DNA of 64,000 nucleotides from the NCBI GenBank assembly GCA_041640295.1, contig JBEQAR010000003.1:6489-70488 (forward strand), in the 5' to 3' direction. This document shows, in pieces, positions 1 through 47,500 of the stretch. Position 1 is the stretch's first letter. Each line of letters starts with the position of its first letter. The position numbers were made by a program, and so were the translations under genes. Under the pieces are notes generated by a model, which saw only the letters and a program-made list of their open reading frames with translations, searched no databases and was not told the DNA's origin. The DNA is from a bacterium (GTDB taxonomy: Bacteria > Patescibacteriota > Minisyncoccia > UBA6257 > HR35).

Positions 1-140
1 TTTAAATAACCAGAACTACCACCTGAATCGGCAACGGTTACAATAGCAGTCAATCTTTTAATTAATTTACCATAATCATCCTTTAAGCCAGTTAAAATAT
101 TAGACAAACCAGTACCACCTCCCAATATTACTATTTTCAT
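1..140 (-). CDS. N-terminal fragment of a YvcK/CofD-like (UPF0052, gluconeogenesis factor family) protein. The gene continues beyond the window edge.
   Basis: Reverse-strand translation from ATG at 138-140 gives [46 protein letters not shown]. The GGGTGLS ... [14 protein letters not shown] motifs are typical of YvcK/CofD. Confidence 0.6.
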
Positions 141-336
141 TTTTAATATATGATTTTATTATATTATTCGCCCTTTATTTAAAATTCGATTTTATTATTA
201 TAAATTTTACTATTTATATTCTAAAAATAAAAACCTCTTCAAAATAAGAACTAAAGCAACAAAAATATTTATATCTTGACTATCTTTCTTTAAATGATAT
301 AATTTAAATGTATTTTAAATAAGTATTAAATTAAAA

Positions 337-1551
337 ATGGTAAGGGTAAAAATTGAACAACAAATAGAAATTATTAAGCGGAAAACAGCTAAAATAATAA
401 CCGAAGAGGAGTTAAGAGAAAAACTTGAGTTTTGTTACAAAAAAAATAAAAAACTCAGAGTAAAATTAGGAATTGACCCAACTGCAACTGATATTCATTT
501 AGGTTTTGCTTTTGTTTTAAAAAAATTAAAAGAATTCCAACAATTAGGACATAAGGCTATTTTAGTTATCGGAGACTTCACTGCTAAAATAGGTGATCCA
601 AGTGGTAGAAATATTACTCGCCCGATATTGACTGATCGGGAAATTAAAAAAAATTTATCTACTTATCTTAAGCAAATTTTTAAAATTTTAGATAAAAATA
701 AAACTGAGGTAAGGTACAATTCTGAATGGTTGACTAAATTAAATTTTAAAGACATCTTAGAAATTTTCTCTAAAATAACAATTCAAAAAATAATTGAACG
801 CGAAGATTTTCAAAAAAGATTAAAAGATAATAATCCAGTTTTTCTTCATGAAACTATTTATCCTTTAGTCCAAGCTTATGACAGTGTTTATCTTAAGGCT
901 GATATTGAATTAGGAGGTAGTGATCAAGAGTTAAATTGTTTAATGGGTAGAGAATTGCAAACAAAATTTAATCAATCTCCTCAAGTGATTATTTTAACGC
1001 CACTATTAATTGGTTTAGATGGAAAAAACAAAATGAGCAAAAGTTTAAAAAACTACATTGGTATTACAGAAAAACCCGAAGAAATGTTCGGTAAGGTTAT
1101 GAGTATTTCTGATGAATTATTGCCTCAATGGTTAGAATTAACTACTGAATTAAGCGAAAAGGAAATCAAAGAAATACTTAATCTTCATCCAATGGAAGCT
1201 AAAAAAAGATTAGCTTATGAAATTGTTAAATACTACCACAATGAAAAATTAGCAAATTTAGCCCTCAATCAATTTGAACAAACCTTTCAAAAAAAAGATT
1301 ACGAAGCATTAGCTAAAGAAATTATTTTAAGTTCGGAAATTAAAAACTTACCCTTAATCGAAATCCTGACTCAATCAAATTTAGTCAAATCAAAATCAGA
1401 AGCTCGAAGATTAATCGAACAAGGAGCAATAGAAATTAACTATCGAAAGGTTATTGTTCAAGATAATATTAATAACTTAAAAATTAATCTTAATACTAAT
1501 GATTTATTAAGGATAGGCAAGAAAAATTTTTATAAGTTAATTATCAAATAA
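337..1551 (+). CDS. tyrS: Tyrosyl-tRNA synthetase
   Basis: Class I aaRS HIGH-like motif (GIDPTATDIHLGF) and a KMSKS motif are present. IGDPSGR is also present. The C-terminal S4-like domain (SEARRLIEQGAIEINYRKV) fits TyrRS. 404 aa. Confidence 0.9.
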   Translation: MVRVKIEQQIEIIKRKTAKIITEEELREKLEFCYKKNKKLRVKLGIDPTATDIHLGFAFVLKKLKEFQQLGHKAILVIGDFTAKIGDPSGRNITRPILTDREIKKNLSTYLKQIFKILDKNKTEVRYNSEWLTKLNFKDILEIFSKITIQKIIEREDFQKRLKDNNPVFLHETIYPLVQAYDSVYLKADIELGGSDQELNCLMGRELQTKFNQSPQVIILTPLLIGLDGKNKMSKSLKNYIGITEKPEEMFGKVMSISDELLPQWLELTTELSEKEIKEILNLHPMEAKKRLAYEIVKYYHNEKLANLALNQFEQTFQKKDYEALAKEIILSSEIKNLPLIEILTQSNLVKSKSEARRLIEQGAIEINYRKVIVQDNINNLKINLNTNDLLRIGKKNFYKLIIK

Positions 1552-39714: not shown

Positions 39715-41157
39715 TTAAGTGATTAAATTATCACCTAAAACAATATCAGTATTAGTATTAATGATTAAACCGCACATTTCTTTTTCTTTAACTTCATTGA
39801 CTGGAATTTTATTTCGTTCTAAACTAATTATTTTACCTTTACCAATTATTACTCCGTTTCTAACAATTAACACTCGGTCATTTAACTTAAATTTTCCTGA
39901 AATCACCTGACCTCCGACTGTTTTTTTATTTGGTGTCTTATTAAAAACTCCTAAAATTTCTAATTCACCTCGGTATTCTTTCTTTTCTTTTCTAATTTCT
40001 ATAATATCTTTCAATTTATCTTCAATTTCATAAATAACATTAGCTTCAACCAAAACAAGATTAAGGTTTTTAATATCATCGTAAATATTTTTAGTTAATT
40101 TAAGATTAAAGGCAATCAAAATGCTATCAGTTTGCTTAGCTAATCTTAAATCTTCAGTAGTAATTGGACCAATATCTTCCTTAACTATTTTAATTTTCAA
40201 ACTATGTTCTTGAGATAATCTTTCTAAAAGATATTCAATGGCTTCTATTGAACCCCACAAATCAGCTTTAAGAATTAAATTGATTTCTAAATTGTAGTTT
40301 TGAGAACTAAAAACAACTTGATTCTTAAAATTAATTTCTTTAACTCTTAATTCTTTTTTTAAATTCTCTAAATTTTCTTTATCAACCAATTTGAAAATTT
40401 CACCTGGTTGAGGTAAAGAATCAAACCCATTAATCAAAATAGGCATTGCTGGGTAAGCTTGATTAATTCTTCTGCCAAAAGCATCTTCTAAAAACTTTAT
40501 TTTCCCTGAAGCTGTAGCTGTAGTTAGATAACTACCTACTGTTACTGTACCATTAGTTACTATTCCACCAACTAAAATACCCTTTTTAACATCTTTAGTT
40601 ATTTCAAGAATATAACCCTCACCTTTAGCATTTTCGTCATGGGTTAATTCTAAAATTTCAGCTAATAATAAAATCATATCTAATAACTCATCAATACCGA
40701 TATTTTTAATAGCAGAAATATTTACCGAAGGAATTTGACCGCCCCAATCTTCCACCAAAACACCCAATTCAGATAATTGTTGTTTAATTTTGTCTGGATT
40801 ACTATTTGGTTTATCAATTTTATTAATAGCAACAATAAATGGTAAATTAAACTTTTTAATATAATCCAAACACTCGATAGTTTGTGGTTTGATTCCCTCA
40901 TCAGCAGCAATAATTAGAATAGCGATATCAGCTATTTGAGCACCCTTTTCTCTTAATTTAAAGAAAGCAGAATGGCCAGGAGTATCAATAAAGGTAATTT
41001 TTTCGTTTTTGTAGTTAATTTCATAAGCACTCACTTTTTGAGTGATTCCTCCAGCTTCTTTATCAACAATTTTAGTATTTTGAATAGTATCTAGCAAAGT
41101 TGATTTTCCATGATCAATATGGCCTAAGATAACTACAATGGGTGGTCTTTTTTTCAT
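39715..41157 (-). CDS. infB: Translation initiation factor IF-2, short form lacking the long N-terminal region. The start is placed at the internal Met (MKKRPPIVVILG) because the longer ORF, which would reach 41208, runs into tRNA-Leu.
   Basis: G domain with ILGHIDHGKSTLLD, DTPGH and NKID. The two beta-barrel domains and the C-terminal domain follow. Confidence 0.85.
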   Translation of the reverse strand: MKKRPPIVVILGHIDHGKSTLLDTIQNTKIVDKEAGGITQKVSAYEINYKNEKITFIDTPGHSAFFKLREKGAQIADIAILIIAADEGIKPQTIECLDYIKKFNLPFIVAINKIDKPNSNPDKIKQQLSELGVLVEDWGGQIPSVNISAIKNIGIDELLDMILLLAEILELTHDENAKGEGYILEITKDVKKGILVGGIVTNGTVTVGSYLTTATASGKIKFLEDAFGRRINQAYPAMPILINGFDSLPQPGEIFKLVDKENLENLKKELRVKEINFKNQVVFSSQNYNLEINLILKADLWGSIEAIEYLLERLSQEHSLKIKIVKEDIGPITTEDLRLAKQTDSILIAFNLKLTKNIYDDIKNLNLVLVEANVIYEIEDKLKDIIEIRKEKKEYRGELEILGVFNKTPNKKTVGGQVISGKFKLNDRVLIVRNGVIIGKGKIISLERNKIPVNEVKEKEMCGLIINTNTDIVLGDNLIT

Positions 41158-41166
41158 AATTAAAAA

Positions 41167-41252
41167 TGGGCAGGGAGGGATTCGAACCCTCACGCTTTTT
41201 TCAAGCACTGGGTCCTAAGCCCAGCGCGTCTACCAAATTCCGCCACCTGCCC
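41167..41252 (-). tRNA. tRNA-Leu (anticodon TAG), class II with long variable arm
   Basis: Reverse complement: GGGCAGG ... ctggg-ctTAGga-cccag, long variable arm, GAGGG-TTCGAAT-CCCTC-CCTGCCC-A. Confidence 0.8.
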
Positions 41253-41362: not shown

Positions 41363-42745
41363 TTAAAGTTTTGAATTTTTTTTGGTTTTCTTATTATTAA
41401 TTGTTAGTTTTTCAATCGAGGATAATACTGCTTCTTTTTCATCCCAAGGTATTGATTCTCCATCTTTAATAATAGATTTCTCCGCTCCTTTTCCTATTAA
41501 AACAACAATATCGCCTCGTTGAGCTTTTTGAATTAATGTCTCTATCGCTTGCTTACGATCGCTAATAATTTGATAAGGTTTTGAAAAATCATATTCTGAT
41601 AGATAATTTTTTACCCCATGTTCAATTTCTCTCATTATTTTTAAAGGATCTTCGTCATAAGGATCTTCATCAGAAATAACAATTTCTGAACAATATTTAG
41701 CAGCTACTCTACCAATTTCTGGTCTTTTCCATTTATCTCTCAATCCTCCAGCCGAACTCACTAAACATAACAATCTTTTAGGTTTAAAAATTTCTAAAAT
41801 ATTTTTATAAAGTTCTTGGATTGATTCCGGAGTATGAGCATAATCAATAATTATTTTAAAGTTTTTGTAGGTAATGATTTCAAAATGTCCTGGTAAATTA
41901 TCTATTTGAGGCAAAATATCTTTTACTAATTTAATAGAAATATCTAAACTTTTTAAAACTGATAAGGAAGCTAAAATATTATAAAGATTTTGTCTACCTA
42001 ATAATTTAGTGGAATATTGAAAAGATTTACCTTCATTTTCTTCGTTTAGATTAAAATAACTTCCTTTGCTGGTTAATTTATATTTAACTATTTGCAGATG
42101 ATCAGAGGTATTAATACCTTTTTCAAAACCAAAAGTAATTTTCCTTTCGGCTGGAAAAGAGAGAAAATATTCCGACTCATAATCATCAAAATTAGCTATA
42201 ATAGTTTTTTTAATAACCTTTCCCCGGAAAATTTTTCTTTCTCCCTTCAATAAATTTTCAAAAAGTTTACCTTTTGCTCTTTTATAGTTATCAAAGCTAC
42301 CATGATGTTCAATATGTTCGGGATGAATATTTAAAAATACAACAATATCAAAATCAATAAATTTGTGTCTGTTTTGCATTAATCCTTCAGAGGTGGCTTC
42401 AATAACAGCAACTTCGCATTGAGCATCTAATGATTTTTTAAGAAATTCTTGCAAATACCACCTTCCAGGCATAGTTATTCTTGATTTATTTTCTATTTCT
42501 TCATCTCCAAAATAAAAATACTGACTTGAAGAAAGAGAAGTTTTTATTCCTAAATTATTTAAAAGTTTATAAATTAAATAGCAGGTAGTTGTTTTACCTT
42601 TGGTACCGGTAACTCCAATAACAATAATTTTTTTTGAAGGAAATCTAAAAAATACAGCAGAAAAGAATGAATAAAGATAATGATAAAAATTTATTAAAAA
42701 TTTAGGTATTTTTTTGCGAATTTTATTTTTTAACATACCTATCAA
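41363..42745 (-). CDS. murE: Mur ligase family protein, MurE-like, with an N-terminal hydrophobic extension
   Basis: P-loop VIGVTGTKGKTTT. DYAHTP motif (MurE-type). 460 aa. Confidence 0.65.
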   Translation of the reverse strand: MIGMLKNKIRKKIPKFLINFYHYLYSFFSAVFFRFPSKKIIVIGVTGTKGKTTTCYLIYKLLNNLGIKTSLSSSQYFYFGDEEIENKSRITMPGRWYLQEFLKKSLDAQCEVAVIEATSEGLMQNRHKFIDFDIVVFLNIHPEHIEHHGSFDNYKRAKGKLFENLLKGERKIFRGKVIKKTIIANFDDYESEYFLSFPAERKITFGFEKGINTSDHLQIVKYKLTSKGSYFNLNEENEGKSFQYSTKLLGRQNLYNILASLSVLKSLDISIKLVKDILPQIDNLPGHFEIITYKNFKIIIDYAHTPESIQELYKNILEIFKPKRLLCLVSSAGGLRDKWKRPEIGRVAAKYCSEIVISDEDPYDEDPLKIMREIEHGVKNYLSEYDFSKPYQIISDRKQAIETLIQKAQRGDIVVLIGKGAEKSIIKDGESIPWDEKEAVLSSIEKLTINNKKTKKNSKL

Positions 42746-42816: not shown

Positions 42817-43737
42817 CTAATATGTTTTTTTAAATGCCTCGGTAATTTTTTCTTGAATTTTTGTTCTAATTTGTTCATATTGTCCGATGCCATCTTTAGG
42901 TATTAAACCATTAATATAAAAAAAATTCTCATCATCAACCTTAATTTCAAAATAATCGCTTAACCATAAATTTGTATTAAAATCCAAAATAATATCTATA
43001 AATTGCGATTTTTTTAACTTATCAGCTAAATTAAAAATTTCTCTATAATTCAAATTAGTTTCAATATTTCTTTTTGACTGAAGAATTAAATTGGTTAATT
43101 TTAAATATTCGTTAAAAGAAATATTCTTTAATCTCTCTTTGAGAGATTTAATAATTATAAACTGATTTTCCATTCTTGTAAAATCTCCTTGAGGGTAGTA
43201 ACGAGAACGTAAAACAAATTCAATCCATTCACTGTTCAACTTTCTTTTGCCTGCCGGCAAAGTATAGCCAGTAAGAGCATCAGTAACTGGATACTTAAGA
43301 TCAACCTCTAAACCACCTAAGATATCAACAATTTTTTTTATTATATGAATATCAAAAACTACATATTTTTGGACATTAAAACCAGTTAGATTAGAAACTT
43401 CTGCCAACAACTCTCTTTTTTTCCCTAAAGCATATAAAGAATTTATTTTATACAGATTATTATCAACCCTAACTATCAAATCTCTAGGAATGTGAATAAT
43501 ATAAGCTTTGTTTCGCTTCAAATAAACAACAAAGATTGAATCAGTATTTTCTCCTCCTTGATAACCATAGCCCATTTTTCCTAAAAATAAATAAGTTTCC
43601 GGTTTTTCTAACACAAAAAGTTGGGGTAATTCTTTTCTAATAAATTCAATTTTTTTAGTTAAAGTAATATTATTTAATAAAATAGCTAAAACGATAATCA
43701 ACAAACAAAAAAAGATTAAATAAACAATATTTTTCAT
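42817..43737 (-). CDS. LytR-CpsA-Psr (LCP) family cell-envelope phosphotransferase
   Basis: N-terminal TM anchor. YIIHIPRDLIV LCP core motif. 306 aa. Confidence 0.7.
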   Translation of the reverse strand: MKNIVYLIFFCLLIIVLAILLNNITLTKKIEFIRKELPQLFVLEKPETYLFLGKMGYGYQGGENTDSIFVVYLKRNKAYIIHIPRDLIVRVDNNLYKINSLYALGKKRELLAEVSNLTGFNVQKYVVFDIHIIKKIVDILGGLEVDLKYPVTDALTGYTLPAGKRKLNSEWIEFVLRSRYYPQGDFTRMENQFIIIKSLKERLKNISFNEYLKLTNLILQSKRNIETNLNYREIFNLADKLKKSQFIDIILDFNTNLWLSDYFEIKVDDENFFYINGLIPKDGIGQYEQIRTKIQEKITEAFKKTY

Positions 43738-45929
43738 TTTAAGTTAAAAATGAATTCCCCGTTATGATAATCAACATCAATTTCTTTCACATTATGATAT
43801 TCATTTATTTTATTTAAAATTTTTTCATAAATAATTTTATTAAAATAAGATGGAGAATAGCTAATTAAATAATTTTTAACTGAAGAAGAAAGATTGATTT
43901 GACAATTATGTTTTTTTATTAAGTCTAGATTAATTTCCTGAATCAATATTTCTAAAATTTTTTCTTTTTCGGAAAGATTAAGAGATTTAAAAACAATTAT
44001 ATCAGAGAAGGCTTTAACGATTTCTAAACCATAAATATTTATTAACTTATCCTTAATACTTTTCTTGATATCAATTAAAGTTTTACCTTTTTCTATTTCT
44101 TGATTAATAAAATCAGCGAAAAGATGAGAAATAGCAATAATAAGACAGTAATTTAATTCAATAATTTCTCCAGCAGCATTTTTAAAGTAACCATCGTTTA
44201 ATATTGAAATAAAAATTTCTAAAACTTCTTTACTAGCTTCTTCAAAATTATCTAATAATATTAAAGAATAAGGATTGTTTTTAATTTCCGTAGTTAATTT
44301 GCCAGTATTGTTTATTGTCTCTTCGCCAATTAATGATTGGATATCTTTAATCTTACTTAAATCAAAATAAATAATCTTATTATTAAAGTAAATATTAGCT
44401 AAAATTTGAGCTAATCTTTTTTTACCTACTCCACTAGGACCAATAAAAATAAAACTAATGAGTTTTTTAACCGATTTAAGAACTTCAACAACATTTTTAA
44501 CAGCAAACTCTTGATTAACAAATTTTTGATAAATAATCTCTTCTAAATTATCAAAAAAGTATTTTTCTAAGAAAATAAAATTCGAAAAGCCTGTTAGTTT
44601 ACCAAAAACATCACCAACTATTTCTTCGGTAATAACTTTTAAATTATTTTTTTGACAAAAATTGACAATTTCTGTAACTAATTTTCGTGCATCTGATATG
44701 TTATTAAAATGATTTTTTGATAATAGGGCAATTTTTGTTAAAGCCTTTGGTTGAATAATAATTTTATTATTAAGTTCCAAAGCTAAAATTGTTAGTAAAT
44801 CTTTTTCAGAAAAATTACTAATAGTGATAATCTTAAAAAATGTTTTCAATTGAGGAATTTTATCAAGTTTCTTCGGTGTTAAAGAAAGAAAAAGCTTAAT
44901 TGGTGTTTGTTTAAGAAACTTTTCAAAAATATACCAATAATTTTTAAGCAAAAACAATGGCGGGTCGGGTATAAAAACAATAACTTGATCATCATCGCTT
45001 GCTTCTGTTAATAAAGAAATTAATTTATTTTCAAAATTTTCTCGTTCTTTATTGTAAATCTCTTCTAAATCTAAAAAGTTTATTTTTTTATTCAAATAAC
45101 TCTCAGGAGTAATTCCTTGGTCAATTAACCAAATCAATCGTTTAATTAAAGTTCTTTTCCCTACACTTACTGATCCCACTAAGATTAATCGCCAATTTTC
45201 ATTATTTAAAATCTGATTTAGTTCATCTTCATGCCCAATAAAAATATTTTGATTAAAAAATTGATTCTTATAAATTAATAAAAAGGCTGAATAAACATCG
45301 AGGAAGGTAATTTTTAATTTGAATAATAAATTCTCAACTAATGGGGTATTTTTTTCTAAAATAGAAAGTAATAAACCGACTGGCGTTATTTTTTCAAAAT
45401 GAAATGTTACTGAAAATTTATAACTTTGGATAAACAAAGATTGTAAATTTTTATAAATTAAATAATGCTCATCAATTTTTAAATCTAATTTTTTACCGCT
45501 TTCAATATTTGTTAATAAATTATTAATTTCTTTTTTAATAGTTTGTGGTTTGATTTCTAATAAATCGAAAATTTTAATTATTTCTTTAAAATTTAAAAGT
45601 TGATTAACAATTGAGATATCAAGTTGATCGATATTCTTTGATTCAATAACAGCATTTAAAATTGCTAACTTTAATTGATTATCTAAATAATCTTCTAAAT
45701 TTTGACTTTTCTGTAATTTTAAATTTTTTATCGGTAGGTGTTTAAAAATGATTAAGTCAAGCAAAAAAATAGTAAATATCCAAAAACCAATTAAATTTAA
45801 ATACTTTTGTTCAGAAAAAAATAATCCTAAACTAAAAAATATTATTAAGTAATATAAACTAATTGAAATTATTTTAAATAATCGTCTTTGATAATTTTTT
45901 AAGCTTAAACTAAGTAAAAAATTATTCAT
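43734..45929 (-). CDS. Membrane-anchored Hsp100/ClpB-like double AAA+ protein with degenerate catalytic motifs
   Basis: Two N-terminal TM helices. D1 reads LVGSVSVGKRTLIKRLIWLIDQGITPE ... ENFENKLISLL ... VIVFIPD, against ClpB [20 protein letters not shown] ... GEFEERLK ... ILFIDE. D2 reads FIGPSGVGKKRLAQILA ... YSLILLDNFEEA, against ClpB FLGPTGVGKTELAKALA ... YSVILLDEIEKA. Confidence 0.55.
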   Translation of the reverse strand: MNNFLLSLSLKNYQRRLFKIISISLYYLIIFFSLGLFFSEQKYLNLIGFWIFTIFLLDLIIFKHLPIKNLKLQKSQNLEDYLDNQLKLAILNAVIESKNIDQLDISIVNQLLNFKEIIKIFDLLEIKPQTIKKEINNLLTNIESGKKLDLKIDEHYLIYKNLQSLFIQSYKFSVTFHFEKITPVGLLLSILEKNTPLVENLLFKLKITFLDVYSAFLLIYKNQFFNQNIFIGHEDELNQILNNENWRLILVGSVSVGKRTLIKRLIWLIDQGITPESYLNKKINFLDLEEIYNKERENFENKLISLLTEASDDDQVIVFIPDPPLFLLKNYWYIFEKFLKQTPIKLFLSLTPKKLDKIPQLKTFFKIITISNFSEKDLLTILALELNNKIIIQPKALTKIALLSKNHFNNISDARKLVTEIVNFCQKNNLKVITEEIVGDVFGKLTGFSNFIFLEKYFFDNLEEIIYQKFVNQEFAVKNVVEVLKSVKKLISFIFIGPSGVGKKRLAQILANIYFNNKIIYFDLSKIKDIQSLIGEETINNTGKLTTEIKNNPYSLILLDNFEEASKEVLEIFISILNDGYFKNAAGEIIELNYCLIIAISHLFADFINQEIEKGKTLIDIKKSIKDKLINIYGLEIVKAFSDIIVFKSLNLSEKEKILEILIQEINLDLIKKHNCQINLSSSVKNYLISYSPSYFNKIIYEKILNKINEYHNVKEIDVDYHNGEFIFNLK

Positions 45930-46206
45930 TGAAAAAAATTATCCAACTAATTAAAAATGGTAATAACAACCAAAATATAATCATTATTAAAACGACAAGA
46001 AAAATCAAATTATACCAAATAAACCCTAACAAAAAATTAAGTAAATTAAAGGGAAATTTTTTATTAAGCAGATAATTTTTTTCAATAAATTGTTTGTTCT
46101 TATTTAAAACAGAAATAAAAAAAATAATAGCTTCGAAAAAATAAAATTTTAAGAATTTATAAAAAGGCTGACAAATTTCAATAACTAAAGAATAAATTAA
46201 TTTCAT
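45922..46206 (-). CDS. Small hydrophobic membrane protein
   Basis: 94 aa with 3 hydrophobic helices. Overlaps the stop of the upstream gene. Confidence 0.3.
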   Translation of the reverse strand: MKLIYSLVIEICQPFYKFLKFYFFEAIIFFISVLNKNKQFIEKNYLLNKKFPFNLLNFLLGFIWYNLIFLVVLIMIIFWLLLPFLISWIIFFNE

Positions 46207-46231: not shown

Positions 46232-47500
46232 TTAAAATAGAGTCTTGGGTGGTTCTTTGATTTCTTTTTTATGAAAATTACTATAATCAAAAATTCTTAT
46301 TTTACCATATTCACCATCATAGCCTGGTTCAATAATTAACTGACCGTTATCTATTTTTTCTAAAGCTTGATAAACTTCTGGATATTTTATTTTCATTTTA
46401 TTTTTATCAAAATTACCTACTAAAATTTCAATTTCCGGACCAAATTCTTGAACAATTTCCAAATAATTATCTAAAACTTTTTTACTCGTTGGATTGGTGT
46501 GGTAAATTTCAGCTAAGATTTCGCTTAAAGGAACTGTTTTTTTAAATGGGGGCCGATTATGATCAACATAATTAACATCTCTTTGAGCTAAACTTTCAAC
46601 TCTATTCATAACTCCCACAGTGATTTTTCTTTGACAAATAGGACAAAGATAATTATTTTTTTTAGATTCATCAGGAGAAAACCTAATTTTGCATAATCTA
46701 TGACCATCGTAATGATATTTACCTTCTTCGGGAAAAAATTCAATAGTCATCACAATTTTATTTTGATTATCTGGAGCTTTTAAGGCTTGATATAAATTTT
46801 GATAAGTTAAATTCTCTAATTCAAAAATAGTTGCCTCTCGTCCGATACGGTGAGGATAAGGAGAATGAGCGTCAGAAAAAGAAACAATAGAAATATTATC
46901 TAATTCTGAAATCCGCCAGTTCATTTGTGGATCTGAAGATAAGCCTGTTTCAACCGCTGAAAGATATTTTGTATTCTCATCAAAAGCTTCATAAATAGAA
47001 TCGAAACCAGACATTGAACCATATAAAGAAAACCACGGGGTCCAGATATGCGCTGGAATAAAAATTACTCGCTCATTAATTTCTAAAGAAATTTTTAAAA
47101 CATCGTTAGCATCTAAACCTAATATTGGTCGACCATCACTGCTTAAATTAGTTAAATGAGAAATTTTTTTATTAAATCTAAATACCGAATCGAAGTCAGG
47201 AAAAATAACCAAATAATGAATTCGCCTTACTTTTTTATTTTTACTATAAATAGAACTTAACTCGCAACTTAAGATAAAATAAACATTATCATCGTTATTT
47301 TTTAGTTTATAAATTCCATCACTAAATTCAACTAATTTTTCCTTCAATTCGTTTAACCACAAAGGATGAGTATAATCGCCAGTAGCAATCAAGTTTAAGC
47401 CTTTTAATTTTCCCCAATAATTCAAATTTTCTAAATTTAAATTTTTTGAACAACCGCGAGAATATTTTGAATGAAGATGTAAATCAGCTGTGATTTTCAT
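46232..47500 (-). CDS. PHP-domain protein with a Zn-finger, resembling endonuclease Q (TIGR00375 family)
   Basis: N-terminal PHP motif MKITADLHLHSKYSRGCS. C-terminal CxxC pair (CKIRF ... CPICQRK). About 420 aa, matching EndoQ size. Confidence 0.55.
   Translation of the reverse strand: MKITADLHLHSKYSRGCSKNLNLENLNYWGKLKGLNLIATGDYTHPLWLNELKEKLVEFSDGIYKLKNNDDNVYFILSCELSSIYSKNKKVRRIHYLVIFPDFDSVFRFNKKISHLTNLSSDGRPILGLDANDVLKISLEINERVIFIPAHIWTPWFSLYGSMSGFDSIYEAFDENTKYLSAVETGLSSDPQMNWRISELDNISIVSFSDAHSPYPHRIGREATIFELENLTYQNLYQALKAPDNQNKIVMTIEFFPEEGKYHYDGHRLCKIRFSPDESKKNNYLCPICQRKITVGVMNRVESLAQRDVNYVDHNRPPFKKTVPLSEILAEIYHTNPTSKKVLDNYLEIVQEFGPEIEILVGNFDKNKMKIKYPEVYQALEKIDNGQLIIEPGYDGEYGKIRIFDYSNFHKKEIKEPPKTLF

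Follow-up and report, generated by a model that had tools for sequence, protein, structure and literature searches.

A membrane-anchored Clp/Hsp100-like protein with degenerate ATPase motifs from a Patescibacteria genome, and the family to which it belongs

The threading of polypeptides at the expense of ATP is usually illustrated with the Hsp100/Clp proteins. Among their relatives, the plant regulators SMAX1 and D53 descend from Clp proteins and have two modules, but their action consists in binding and not in unfolding, and in FtsH two N-terminal transmembrane (TM) helices hold a cytoplasmic AAA+ module at the membrane. The abstract of PMC7949044 describes FtsH as membrane-anchored, and the Torsin system includes the catalytically dead AAA+ scaffolds LAP1 and LULL1 (PMC5425593). 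The fold, the membrane anchoring of an AAA+ protein (FtsH), AAA+ pseudo-enzymes and Torsin without pore loops are already known. Here we report on a gene for a Clp/Hsp100-like protein of 731 amino acids (aa) in a stretch of 64,000 nucleotides (nt; hereafter, the window) of contig JBEQAR010000003.1 (assembly GCA_041640295.1, Patescibacteriota). The protein is anchored in the membrane, and both of its ATPase sites lack the residues of hydrolysis but retain the adenine-contact motifs as well as Gly and Lys of the P-loop. We believe it likely, although by no means certain, that it is an ATP-binding, non-hydrolysing membrane scaffold kept by selection.

Domain order and membrane hairpin

The gene product proved to be a full-length protein of the Clp/Hsp100 fold, with a TM hairpin, a Clp_N-like domain and the modules D1 and D2 in this order, so that the class I Clp layout (a Clp_N double repeat and two AAA+ modules) is present. 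In sequence comparison the second module is the clearer one: AAA_2 is the sole Pfam match of the protein (residues 489-629, E 3.7e-18), and D2 resembles D2 of ClpE, Hsp104, ClpB and ClpC (phmmer against PDB sequences, E 1e-31 to 1e-20), while the match of D1 in the same comparison is weak and extends from the P-loop to Walker B (residues 231-322). No Pfam match to Clp_N, AAA_lid_9 or ClpB_D2-small was obtained; thus, of the two profile checks proposed at first, with AAA_2 and with ClpB_D2-small, only the former gave a match. The NCBIfam scores are far under the cut-offs, namely, 128.8 bits against 1232.1 for ClpB (TIGR03346) and 90 bits against 993 for ClpA, and the same is true of ClpG, ClpK and ClpV, which also match.

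The AlphaFold2 (AF2) model, computed from an alignment of 52 sequences, has a mean pLDDT (predicted local distance difference test) of 87. It contains N-terminal helices 12-40 and 45-63 followed by a disordered linker, an all-helical region at residues 78-225 (pLDDT about 90), and two complete alpha/beta AAA+ modules with lid domains at 234-446 and 455-731. Foldseek aligned the model along full-length ClpC, ClpB, Hsp104 and ClpA (E 3e-33 to 1e-25), the top matches being ClpC 9a66 and 9rai, ClpB 6qs6 and Hsp104 6n8z. The initial claim of two AAA+ modules similar to D1 and D2 of ClpB is therefore supported, for D2 by AAA_2 and PDB sequence matches, and for both modules by AF2 and Foldseek. The N-domains of the family described below align with canonical Clp_N over both repeats (hhalign, 97%, E 7.7e-11, residues 76-228).

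Two elements of the canonical proteins are missing. There is no M-domain coiled coil: a gap of about 120 columns stands in the alignment with ClpB, and the AF2 model has no such insertion. There is no ClpP-docking loop either, since an 11-column gap is found where ClpC has GAGVGFK and the window protein reads EIEKGKTL. Both gaps are common to all family members. A role as the ATPase partner of the ClpP protease was considered and ruled out, as the docking loop is missing from D2.

The hairpin consists of TM1 (about residues 18-38) and TM2 (about 44-62), with Kyte-Doolittle maxima over 19 residues of 2.29 and 2.30. Three Lys or Arg residues precede TM1 and four follow TM2, and since both flanks are rich in them, a hairpin with both ends in the cytoplasm is predicted. 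The two N-terminal TM helices claimed originally are thus upheld by the TM topology check (hydropathy, positive-inside charges and the AF2 model); hydropathy revealed no comparable N-terminal hydrophobic helices in canonical ClpB and ClpC. Compared with the 48%-identical ortholog P0002, the hairpin is the best-conserved region (68% identity against 42-55% elsewhere), which suggests specific contacts inside the membrane, more than passive anchoring. It would hold the protein at the cytoplasmic face of the membrane.

Loss of catalytic motifs, the family and the D2-dead clade

The motifs were read from alignments to canonical ClpB (P0018) and ClpC (P0072), and their coordinates were rechecked (Table 1); AF2 strands 316-320, 556-560 and 596-601 are consistent with the assignments. 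The first-pass annotation had pointed to a degenerate Walker B in D1 (IVFIPD against ILFIDE), to Asn for Glu in Walker B of D2 (LILLDNFEE against LLDEIE), and to an unrecognisable GYVG pore loop. All three statements are right, and realignment to ClpB and ClpC restores neither a Walker B Glu nor the pore loops; however, the extent of degeneracy was understated, as the Thr of Walker A, the pore-loop Tyr of D1, the Arg-Arg finger, sensor-1, the Arg finger and sensor-2 are lost too. The AAA_2 score of D2 is 66.5 bits, compared with 127-189 bits in relatives with an active D2.

Table 1. Features of the locus, motifs of the Clp-like protein and other genes of the window discussed in the text
Feature	Position (nt), strand	Residues	Window protein	Canonical form	Basis or remark
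Clp/Hsp100-like pseudo-ATPase gene	43734..45929, -				731 aa, membrane-anchored; ORF (open reading frame) listing, Pfam AAA_2, NCBIfam, AF2, Foldseek
N-terminal TM helical hairpin	45741..45896, -	12-63			Hydropathy, charges, AF2
Clp_N-like double-repeat N-domain	45255..45698, -	78-225			hhalign, AF2
D1 AAA+ module	44589..45239, -	231-447			Alignment, AF2 strand order
D2 AAA+ module and small domain	43737..44558, -	458-731			phmmer against ClpE/Hsp104, motif table
D1 Walker A		252-260	GSVSVGKRT	GEPGxGKTA	Arg in place of Thr/Ser; Gly and Lys kept
D1 pore loop		295-301	KERENF	AKYKGEF	Tyr lost
D1 Walker B		317-322	IVFIPD	ILFIDE	
D1 Arg-Arg finger		361-366	LKTFFK	LERRFQ	RR replaced by TF
D2 adenine motif		471-473	VNQ		Retained
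D2 Walker A		P-loop 497-503	GPSGVGKKR	GxTGVGKTE	P-loop GPSGVGK kept; Thr replaced by Lys504
D2 pore loop		535-543	GEETINNTG	GSPPGYVGYDEGG	No Tyr
D2 Walker B		556-564	LILLDNFEEA	VVLFDEIEKA	Glu replaced by Asn561
D2 sensor-1			AISH	MTSN	Asn replaced by His602
D2 Arg finger			IVKAFS	FLNRID	Arg replaced by Ala640
D2 sensor-2		692-694	SPS	GAR	
Small membrane protein gene	45922..46206, -				94 aa; stop overlaps the Clp-like start by 8 nt; hydrophobic C-terminal half
LCP (LytR-CpsA-Psr) glycopolymer transferase gene	42817..43737, -				PF03816, E 9e-26; TIGR00350, 75.5 bits against cut-off 62.3
MurE (UDP-N-acetylmuramyl-tripeptide synthetase) gene	41363..42745, -				TIGR01085, 337 bits against cut-off 257; Pfam Mur_ligase_M and Mur_ligase_C
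TIGR00375/MJ0043_C protein gene	46232..47500, -				422 aa
IF-2 ORF	39715..41208, -				497 aa, GTG start
tRNA gene	41167..41252, -				
ORF of 450 aa	50118..51470, -				No Pfam match
ORF of 526 aa	54091..55671, -				No Pfam match
ORF of 415 aa	29603..30850, -				No Pfam match

In Clp ATPases, the IG and V-x-Q motifs and the P-loops contact adenine and the phosphates. Because these motifs are conserved in the window protein and the catalytic residues are gone, we infer that nucleotide binding would be retained and hydrolysis would not. The first-pass annotation had also proposed substrate trapping. Walker-B trap mutants need pore loops that grip the polypeptide; since the pore-loop Tyr is missing from both rings here and D2 has no aromatic pore loop anywhere in the family, a pore-based trap is unlikely.

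The protein belongs to a broad family. A profile built from the alignment of the TM region, the N-domain and D1 was used in an exhaustive search of 1.84 billion cluster representatives. The 150 matches listed score from 264 to 512 bits, with the window protein ranked first at 512 bits, a rank that is partly circular because its sequence was in the profile; canonical ClpB and ClpC do not exceed 237 bits. A second homologue search with the profile of the same regions returned mostly canonical ClpB and ClpC, and a search of the window protein against GTDB species genomes returned only an unrelated Desulfobacterales Clp. The family has at least 130 full-length representatives, and the motif census was made over the 130 that were aligned. 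An N-terminal hydrophobic segment is found in 127 of them. The Asp-Glu of D1 Walker B is missing in 128/130 (the typical form is hhhhP[DEN]xH), and so is the D1 Arg-Arg finger in 125/130; not one of the 130 has an aromatic-hydrophobic-Gly pore loop in D2. All five catalytic elements of D2 are nevertheless canonical (GPTGVGKTE, LLLDEFEKA, TSN, NRF and GARP) in 122 representatives, and D2 is dead in the other 8. Among the D2-active members, a shorter G-[ST]-P-D-G-x-x-x-G, whose last Gly often follows an aliphatic residue, usually stands in place of GYVG. Since this loop is well conserved, its position is still under constraint, for something other than aromatic gripping.

The window protein has the hairpin before Clp_N, the dead D1 and the non-aromatic D2 pore loop of the family; it departs from it in that all five D2 elements are altered, which places it in a D2-dead subclade. 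The anchor, the dead D1 and the lack of tyrosines in the pore loops are thus ancestral traits of the family, not special to this gene; the family D1 would already be a pseudo-ATPase, with D2 as its only motor. The idea of a membrane-tethered dead Hsp100 holds in that the hydrolysis residues are gone from both sites, but only the loss of D2 is specific to the lineage.

Named members come from Colwellbacteria, Wolfebacteria, Moranbacteria, Minisyncoccia and metagenome-assembled genomes (MAGs) labelled 'Patescibacteria group', and in public annotations they appear as AAA family ATPase, ClpC, ClpA, 'Clp R domain-containing protein' or hypothetical. The JGI label of P0001, a sequence identical to the window ORF, is 'energy-coupling factor transporter ATP-binding protein EcfA2', which is wrong; relatives are auto-annotated as ClpA, ClpC or 'ATP-dependent Clp protease ATP-binding subunit' despite the lack of a ClpP-docking loop. 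Such labels, EcfA2 included, mislead metabolic and proteostasis reconstructions of candidate phyla radiation (CPR) genomes. In the full-text literature searched, neither a membrane-anchored Clp/Hsp100 nor this family is described, in agreement with the initial impression that it had not been described; subscription journals lie outside this coverage, and the absence is not proof. An excerpt of the CPR protein-family paper PMC6744442 mentions no membrane-anchored Clp.

Members of about 900 aa (P0122, P0126, P0128, P0129, P0136, P0140, P0150, P0155 and P0162) carry a DnaJ-type zinc finger, CxxCxGxG...CxxCxGxG, ahead of the hairpin. The Pfam match to DnaJ_CXXCXGXG in these relatives (E 0.0037) is under its cut-off; it could mean that the D2-active branch has a module that binds clients in the manner of a chaperone.

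The eight representatives with a degenerate D2 are P0001 (the window protein), P0002, P0010, P0088, P0120, P0181, P0192 and P0226. By neighbour joining, seven of the eight group together in a single clade with long branches, whose sister group consists of the D2-active P0003 and P0087. The eighth, P0226 (850 aa), lost D2 separately elsewhere in the tree (GKK, LLNN, TSH, NQF, GTK); therefore, inactivation of D2 happened more than once. The gene block of P0181 (Patescibacteria MAG GCA_025060085.1) is that of the window: TsaD, AI-2E transporter, RNase H-like protein, MJ0043_C/TIGR00375 protein, small gene, Clp-like gene, LCP, MurE and IF-2. Its core is also found in P0120, P0010, P0002 and the D2-active P0003, and in view of this shared gene order the dead form is an ortholog that has replaced the active form at the same locus, rather than a spare copy.

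The large domain of D2 has a mean pairwise identity of 0.33 in the dead clade, compared with 0.62-0.65 in D2-active groups; every other domain in the dead clade is also at about 0.3. It seems that the special constraint of a motor is gone and a general constraint on the fold remains. The positions kept in at least six of the seven members include I231, G232, G252, G257, K258 and T260 in the IG motif and P-loop of D1, and V471, Q473, G497, P498, G500, V501, G502 and K503 in the V-x-Q motif and P-loop of D2.

This conservation, together with the acidic residues that follow Walker B (DNFEE), could be taken to mean that the protein is still an active ATPase or unfoldase with non-canonical residues, Glu563 or Glu564 standing in for the Walker B Glu and Lys or Arg for the Mg2+ ligand. 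We consider this very unlikely. Catalysis would have to do without five independent elements in D2 and at least three in D1; Glu563 is the second Glu of DEFEKA and is present in D2-active relatives too, so that there is no compensating novelty; the Walker B replacements vary among the dead-clade members (DN, EN, DD, NN, ED, DK, KN), which indicates relaxation rather than a new conserved catalytic solution; and there is no aromatic pore loop for coupling hydrolysis to threading.

It could also be presumed that the gene is decaying or is a sequencing or assembly artefact. The region is strongly AT-rich (a G+C content of 0.22-0.24), the branch in the tree is long, the protein is about 100 aa shorter than the D2-active relatives, and the Pfam match to ClpB_D2-small found in those relatives is missing. 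Still, we find this reading scarcely credible. The 731-aa ORF is intact, and 13 contigs, obtained in several independent sequencing runs, encode the identical protein; therefore, no assembly error is involved. Orthologs at 24-48% identity are intact too, and they agree with the window gene in the class of their substitutions and in gene order; in particular, P0002 (734 aa) has similar defects (GPKETGKKE, ILFENFE, NKF) and the same neighbours. Every domain folds confidently in AF2. Finally, the comparison of P0002 with P0084 gave 19 synonymous and 13 non-synonymous changes (omega 0.15; binomial p 3.9e-7 against neutrality), and that of the window gene with P0083 gave 4 and 4 (omega 0.23; p 0.048); these dN/dS estimates (non-synonymous to synonymous rates) concern close variants only, since synonymous sites are saturated at 48% amino-acid identity. 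The whole ORF is thus under purifying selection. We rejected the pseudogene and artefact reading on the evidence of the contigs, the ortholog defects, the AF2 fold and dN/dS.

In the first-pass annotation, conservation of the degenerate motifs in orthologs was expected to speak for selection, and orthologs with canonical motifs for a sequencing error or a recent pseudogene. The former are found in the 48% ortholog and in the dead clade. The latter do exist, namely, D2 is canonical in the 122 representatives mentioned (e.g., P0003), and D1 and the pore loops are degenerate there too; an error or a pseudogene is rejected on the evidence given above.

Neighbouring genes and possible function

The small membrane protein gene directly upstream, overlooked in the first-pass annotation, is the most consistently linked partner. 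The 94-aa protein has no Pfam or NCBIfam match; a gene for 94-126 aa precedes the Clp-like gene in all 8 syntenic loci examined, including those of the distant P0005 and P0012, and at most loci it overlaps the Clp-like start. The P0007 locus has no separate small gene, and the N-terminal extension of P0006-P0009 (Moranbacteria-type) aligns with the small proteins (hhalign, 88.6%, E 2.7e-6), with the common pattern W-x-Y-x-x-G ... FS ... LF-x-P ... R ... W-x-x-x-P. Since the small protein is apparently fused to the Clp-like protein in P0006-P0009, a functional link between the two is probable, and the 94-aa protein is probably a partner subunit.

Downstream, the start of the LCP gene overlaps the Clp-like stop by 4 nt (ATGA), and MurE follows 71 nt after LCP in the same orientation, as had been claimed (the protein matches are given in Table 1). 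The LCP gene is downstream of the Clp-like gene at the P0001, P0002, P0003, P0010, P0120 and P0181 loci, and in these the cell-envelope context proposed originally is supported by gene order.

With these neighbours in mind, the scaffold reading can be stated in more detail. ATP or ADP would be bound as a structural or assembly ligand, without hydrolysis, and threading of substrates would not occur. Together with the 94-aa membrane protein, the Clp-like protein would form a static, putatively oligomeric scaffold or adaptor on the cytoplasmic side of the membrane, and other proteins would bind to its ring surface and Clp_N domain. The weakest step concerns the clients or partners: since translational coupling links the gene to LCP, and MurE is next, proteins of cell-envelope assembly such as LCP would be the most plausible ones.

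A number of observations weigh against this reading or parts of it. Lys and Arg in place of the Walker A Thr could impair the binding of Mg-ATP as well, and nucleotide binding is argued from conserved motifs alone. Long-branch attraction could overstate the monophyly of the dead clade. The hhalign support for the fusion is moderate, and the segments compared are hydrophobic. The link with LCP and MurE is one of gene order only, with TsaD, the RNase H-like protein and IF-2 in the same block; the adjacency is absent at the more distant P0005, P0007 and P0012, where the envelope context accordingly does not hold. Patescibacteria genomes are compact, and neighbours in them are often functionally unrelated.

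The last points lead to an alternative without a specific tie to the envelope, in which the protein would be a general membrane-proximal proteostasis factor, e.g., a holdase for membrane or secretory proteins, and the order of LCP and MurE would be merely inherited. The genes downstream of the distant members are indeed of other kinds (an MFS transporter, GlyRS, glycosyltransferases), the relatives of about 900 aa carry a chaperone-type module in their DnaJ-type zinc finger, and the Clp_N domain is kept. Yet the ATGA overlap or a close adjacency of LCP is maintained in orthologs down to about 24% identity, and we regard this alternative as somewhat unlikely, although it has to be taken seriously.

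According to another alternative, the protein has no catalytic role of its own but joins an active AAA+ protein encoded elsewhere (such as ClpB, ClpC, ClpX or FtsH) as a regulatory subunit, and tethers or modulates this partner at the membrane. Dead AAA+ scaffolds that regulate active relatives exist in LAP1/LULL1 with Torsin (PMC5425593), and with conserved P-loops and overall fold the contacts of rings and interfaces could persist. However, both Arg fingers are lost (RR to TF in D1, Arg to Ala640 in D2), which makes a LAP1-style activation of the partner impossible; by synteny the D2-dead form replaces the D2-active ortholog rather than sitting beside it; and no other Clp paralog was found within the 64-kb window (tblastn with ClpB and ClpC found only 43734..45929). 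We therefore consider this role improbable.

It is tempting to propose more for the family as a whole: with its small membrane partner it may be an unrecognised membrane machine, working without pore-loop threading in the assembly and quality control of membrane proteins or the cell envelope in ultra-small bacteria, which in this lineage was turned into an ATP-binding scaffold coupled to LCP and MurE. In this full form the proposal is speculative and, in our opinion, rather unlikely.

A few observations concern the rest of the window. It carries housekeeping genes (EF-G, PNPase, RNase J, CTP synthase, a P-type ATPase, a ComM-like protein and TsaD) and seven tRNAs. PADLOC revealed no defence system in it, with only weak generic AAA_2-type matches for the Clp-like protein (PDC-M37B, 6e-8; DolB, 9e-7) and none for its neighbours. 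The TIGR00375/MJ0043_C protein has a PHP-like N-terminus and a CPICxxK zinc motif; its gene lies upstream of the Clp-like gene, with one gene between them, both here and in P0005, P0120 and P0181, so that the adjacency is deeply conserved. The IF-2 ORF overlaps a tRNA gene, and gene calls on identical contigs give IF-2 a length of 480 aa; this IF-2 is very short and is devoid of the long N-terminal region found in most bacteria. Three further ORFs have no Pfam match (Table 1); the 450-aa one has no NCBIfam match either and is conserved beside TsaD on other contigs.

Comparison with known systems

The whole family may be of more interest than its member in the window. It is a broad unstudied branch in Patescibacteria, tied to the membrane and devoid of aromatic pore loops, where D2 alone would serve as the motor, and one clade has switched D2 off and is still subject to selection. 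If this is confirmed, nature would have provided a test of the uses that a Clp double ring has when no motor drives it (scaffolding, nucleotide sensing or tethering, for example), and there would be a handle on envelope and membrane proteostasis in organisms not yet grown alone; the window protein, if our reading is true, would represent a structural use of the two-ring Hsp100 fold by a bacterial pseudo-enzyme.

Like the unnamed Patescibacteria family, the window protein has the hairpin, Clp_N, a degenerate D1, no M-domain or ClpP loop, a non-aromatic D2 loop and a small gene, upstream or fused; unlike the 122 members with a canonical D2, it has lost this D2 and GSPDGxxxG, together with six clade mates. 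Among described proteins, ClpE (29hb), Hsp104, ClpB and ClpC are its best PDB sequence matches. With ClpC, ClpE and ClpB it shares the order of Clp_N, D1, D2 and D2-small and the homology of Clp_N. It differs from ClpB and ClpC in having no M-domain, from ClpC, ClpE and ClpA in lacking the ClpP-docking loop, and from ClpC, ClpE and ClpB in the TM hairpin, the absence of the pore-loop Tyr (KYR in D1, GYVG in D2) and the loss of catalytic residues at both sites.

SMAX1 (9kkx) is a weak PDB match (E 0.0024). SMAX1 and D53 are eukaryotic, soluble and nuclear, with no membrane anchor, and the kinship amounts to a shared Clp ancestry. FtsH has a single active AAA module of the classical clade, an aromatic pore loop and a fused zinc protease, and none of these is found in the window protein. 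Torsins are similar in being related to Clp/Hsp100, in their association with the membrane via an N-terminal hydrophobic segment and in the lack of aromatic pore loops. They differ in having a single AAA+ module, in residing in the lumen of the endoplasmic reticulum and in becoming active once a cofactor supplies the Arg finger, whereas the window protein has two modules and is cytoplasmic. Their cofactors LAP1 and LULL1 have no ATP-binding motifs and keep the Arg finger; in the window protein the situation is reversed, with the P-loops kept and the Arg fingers lost.

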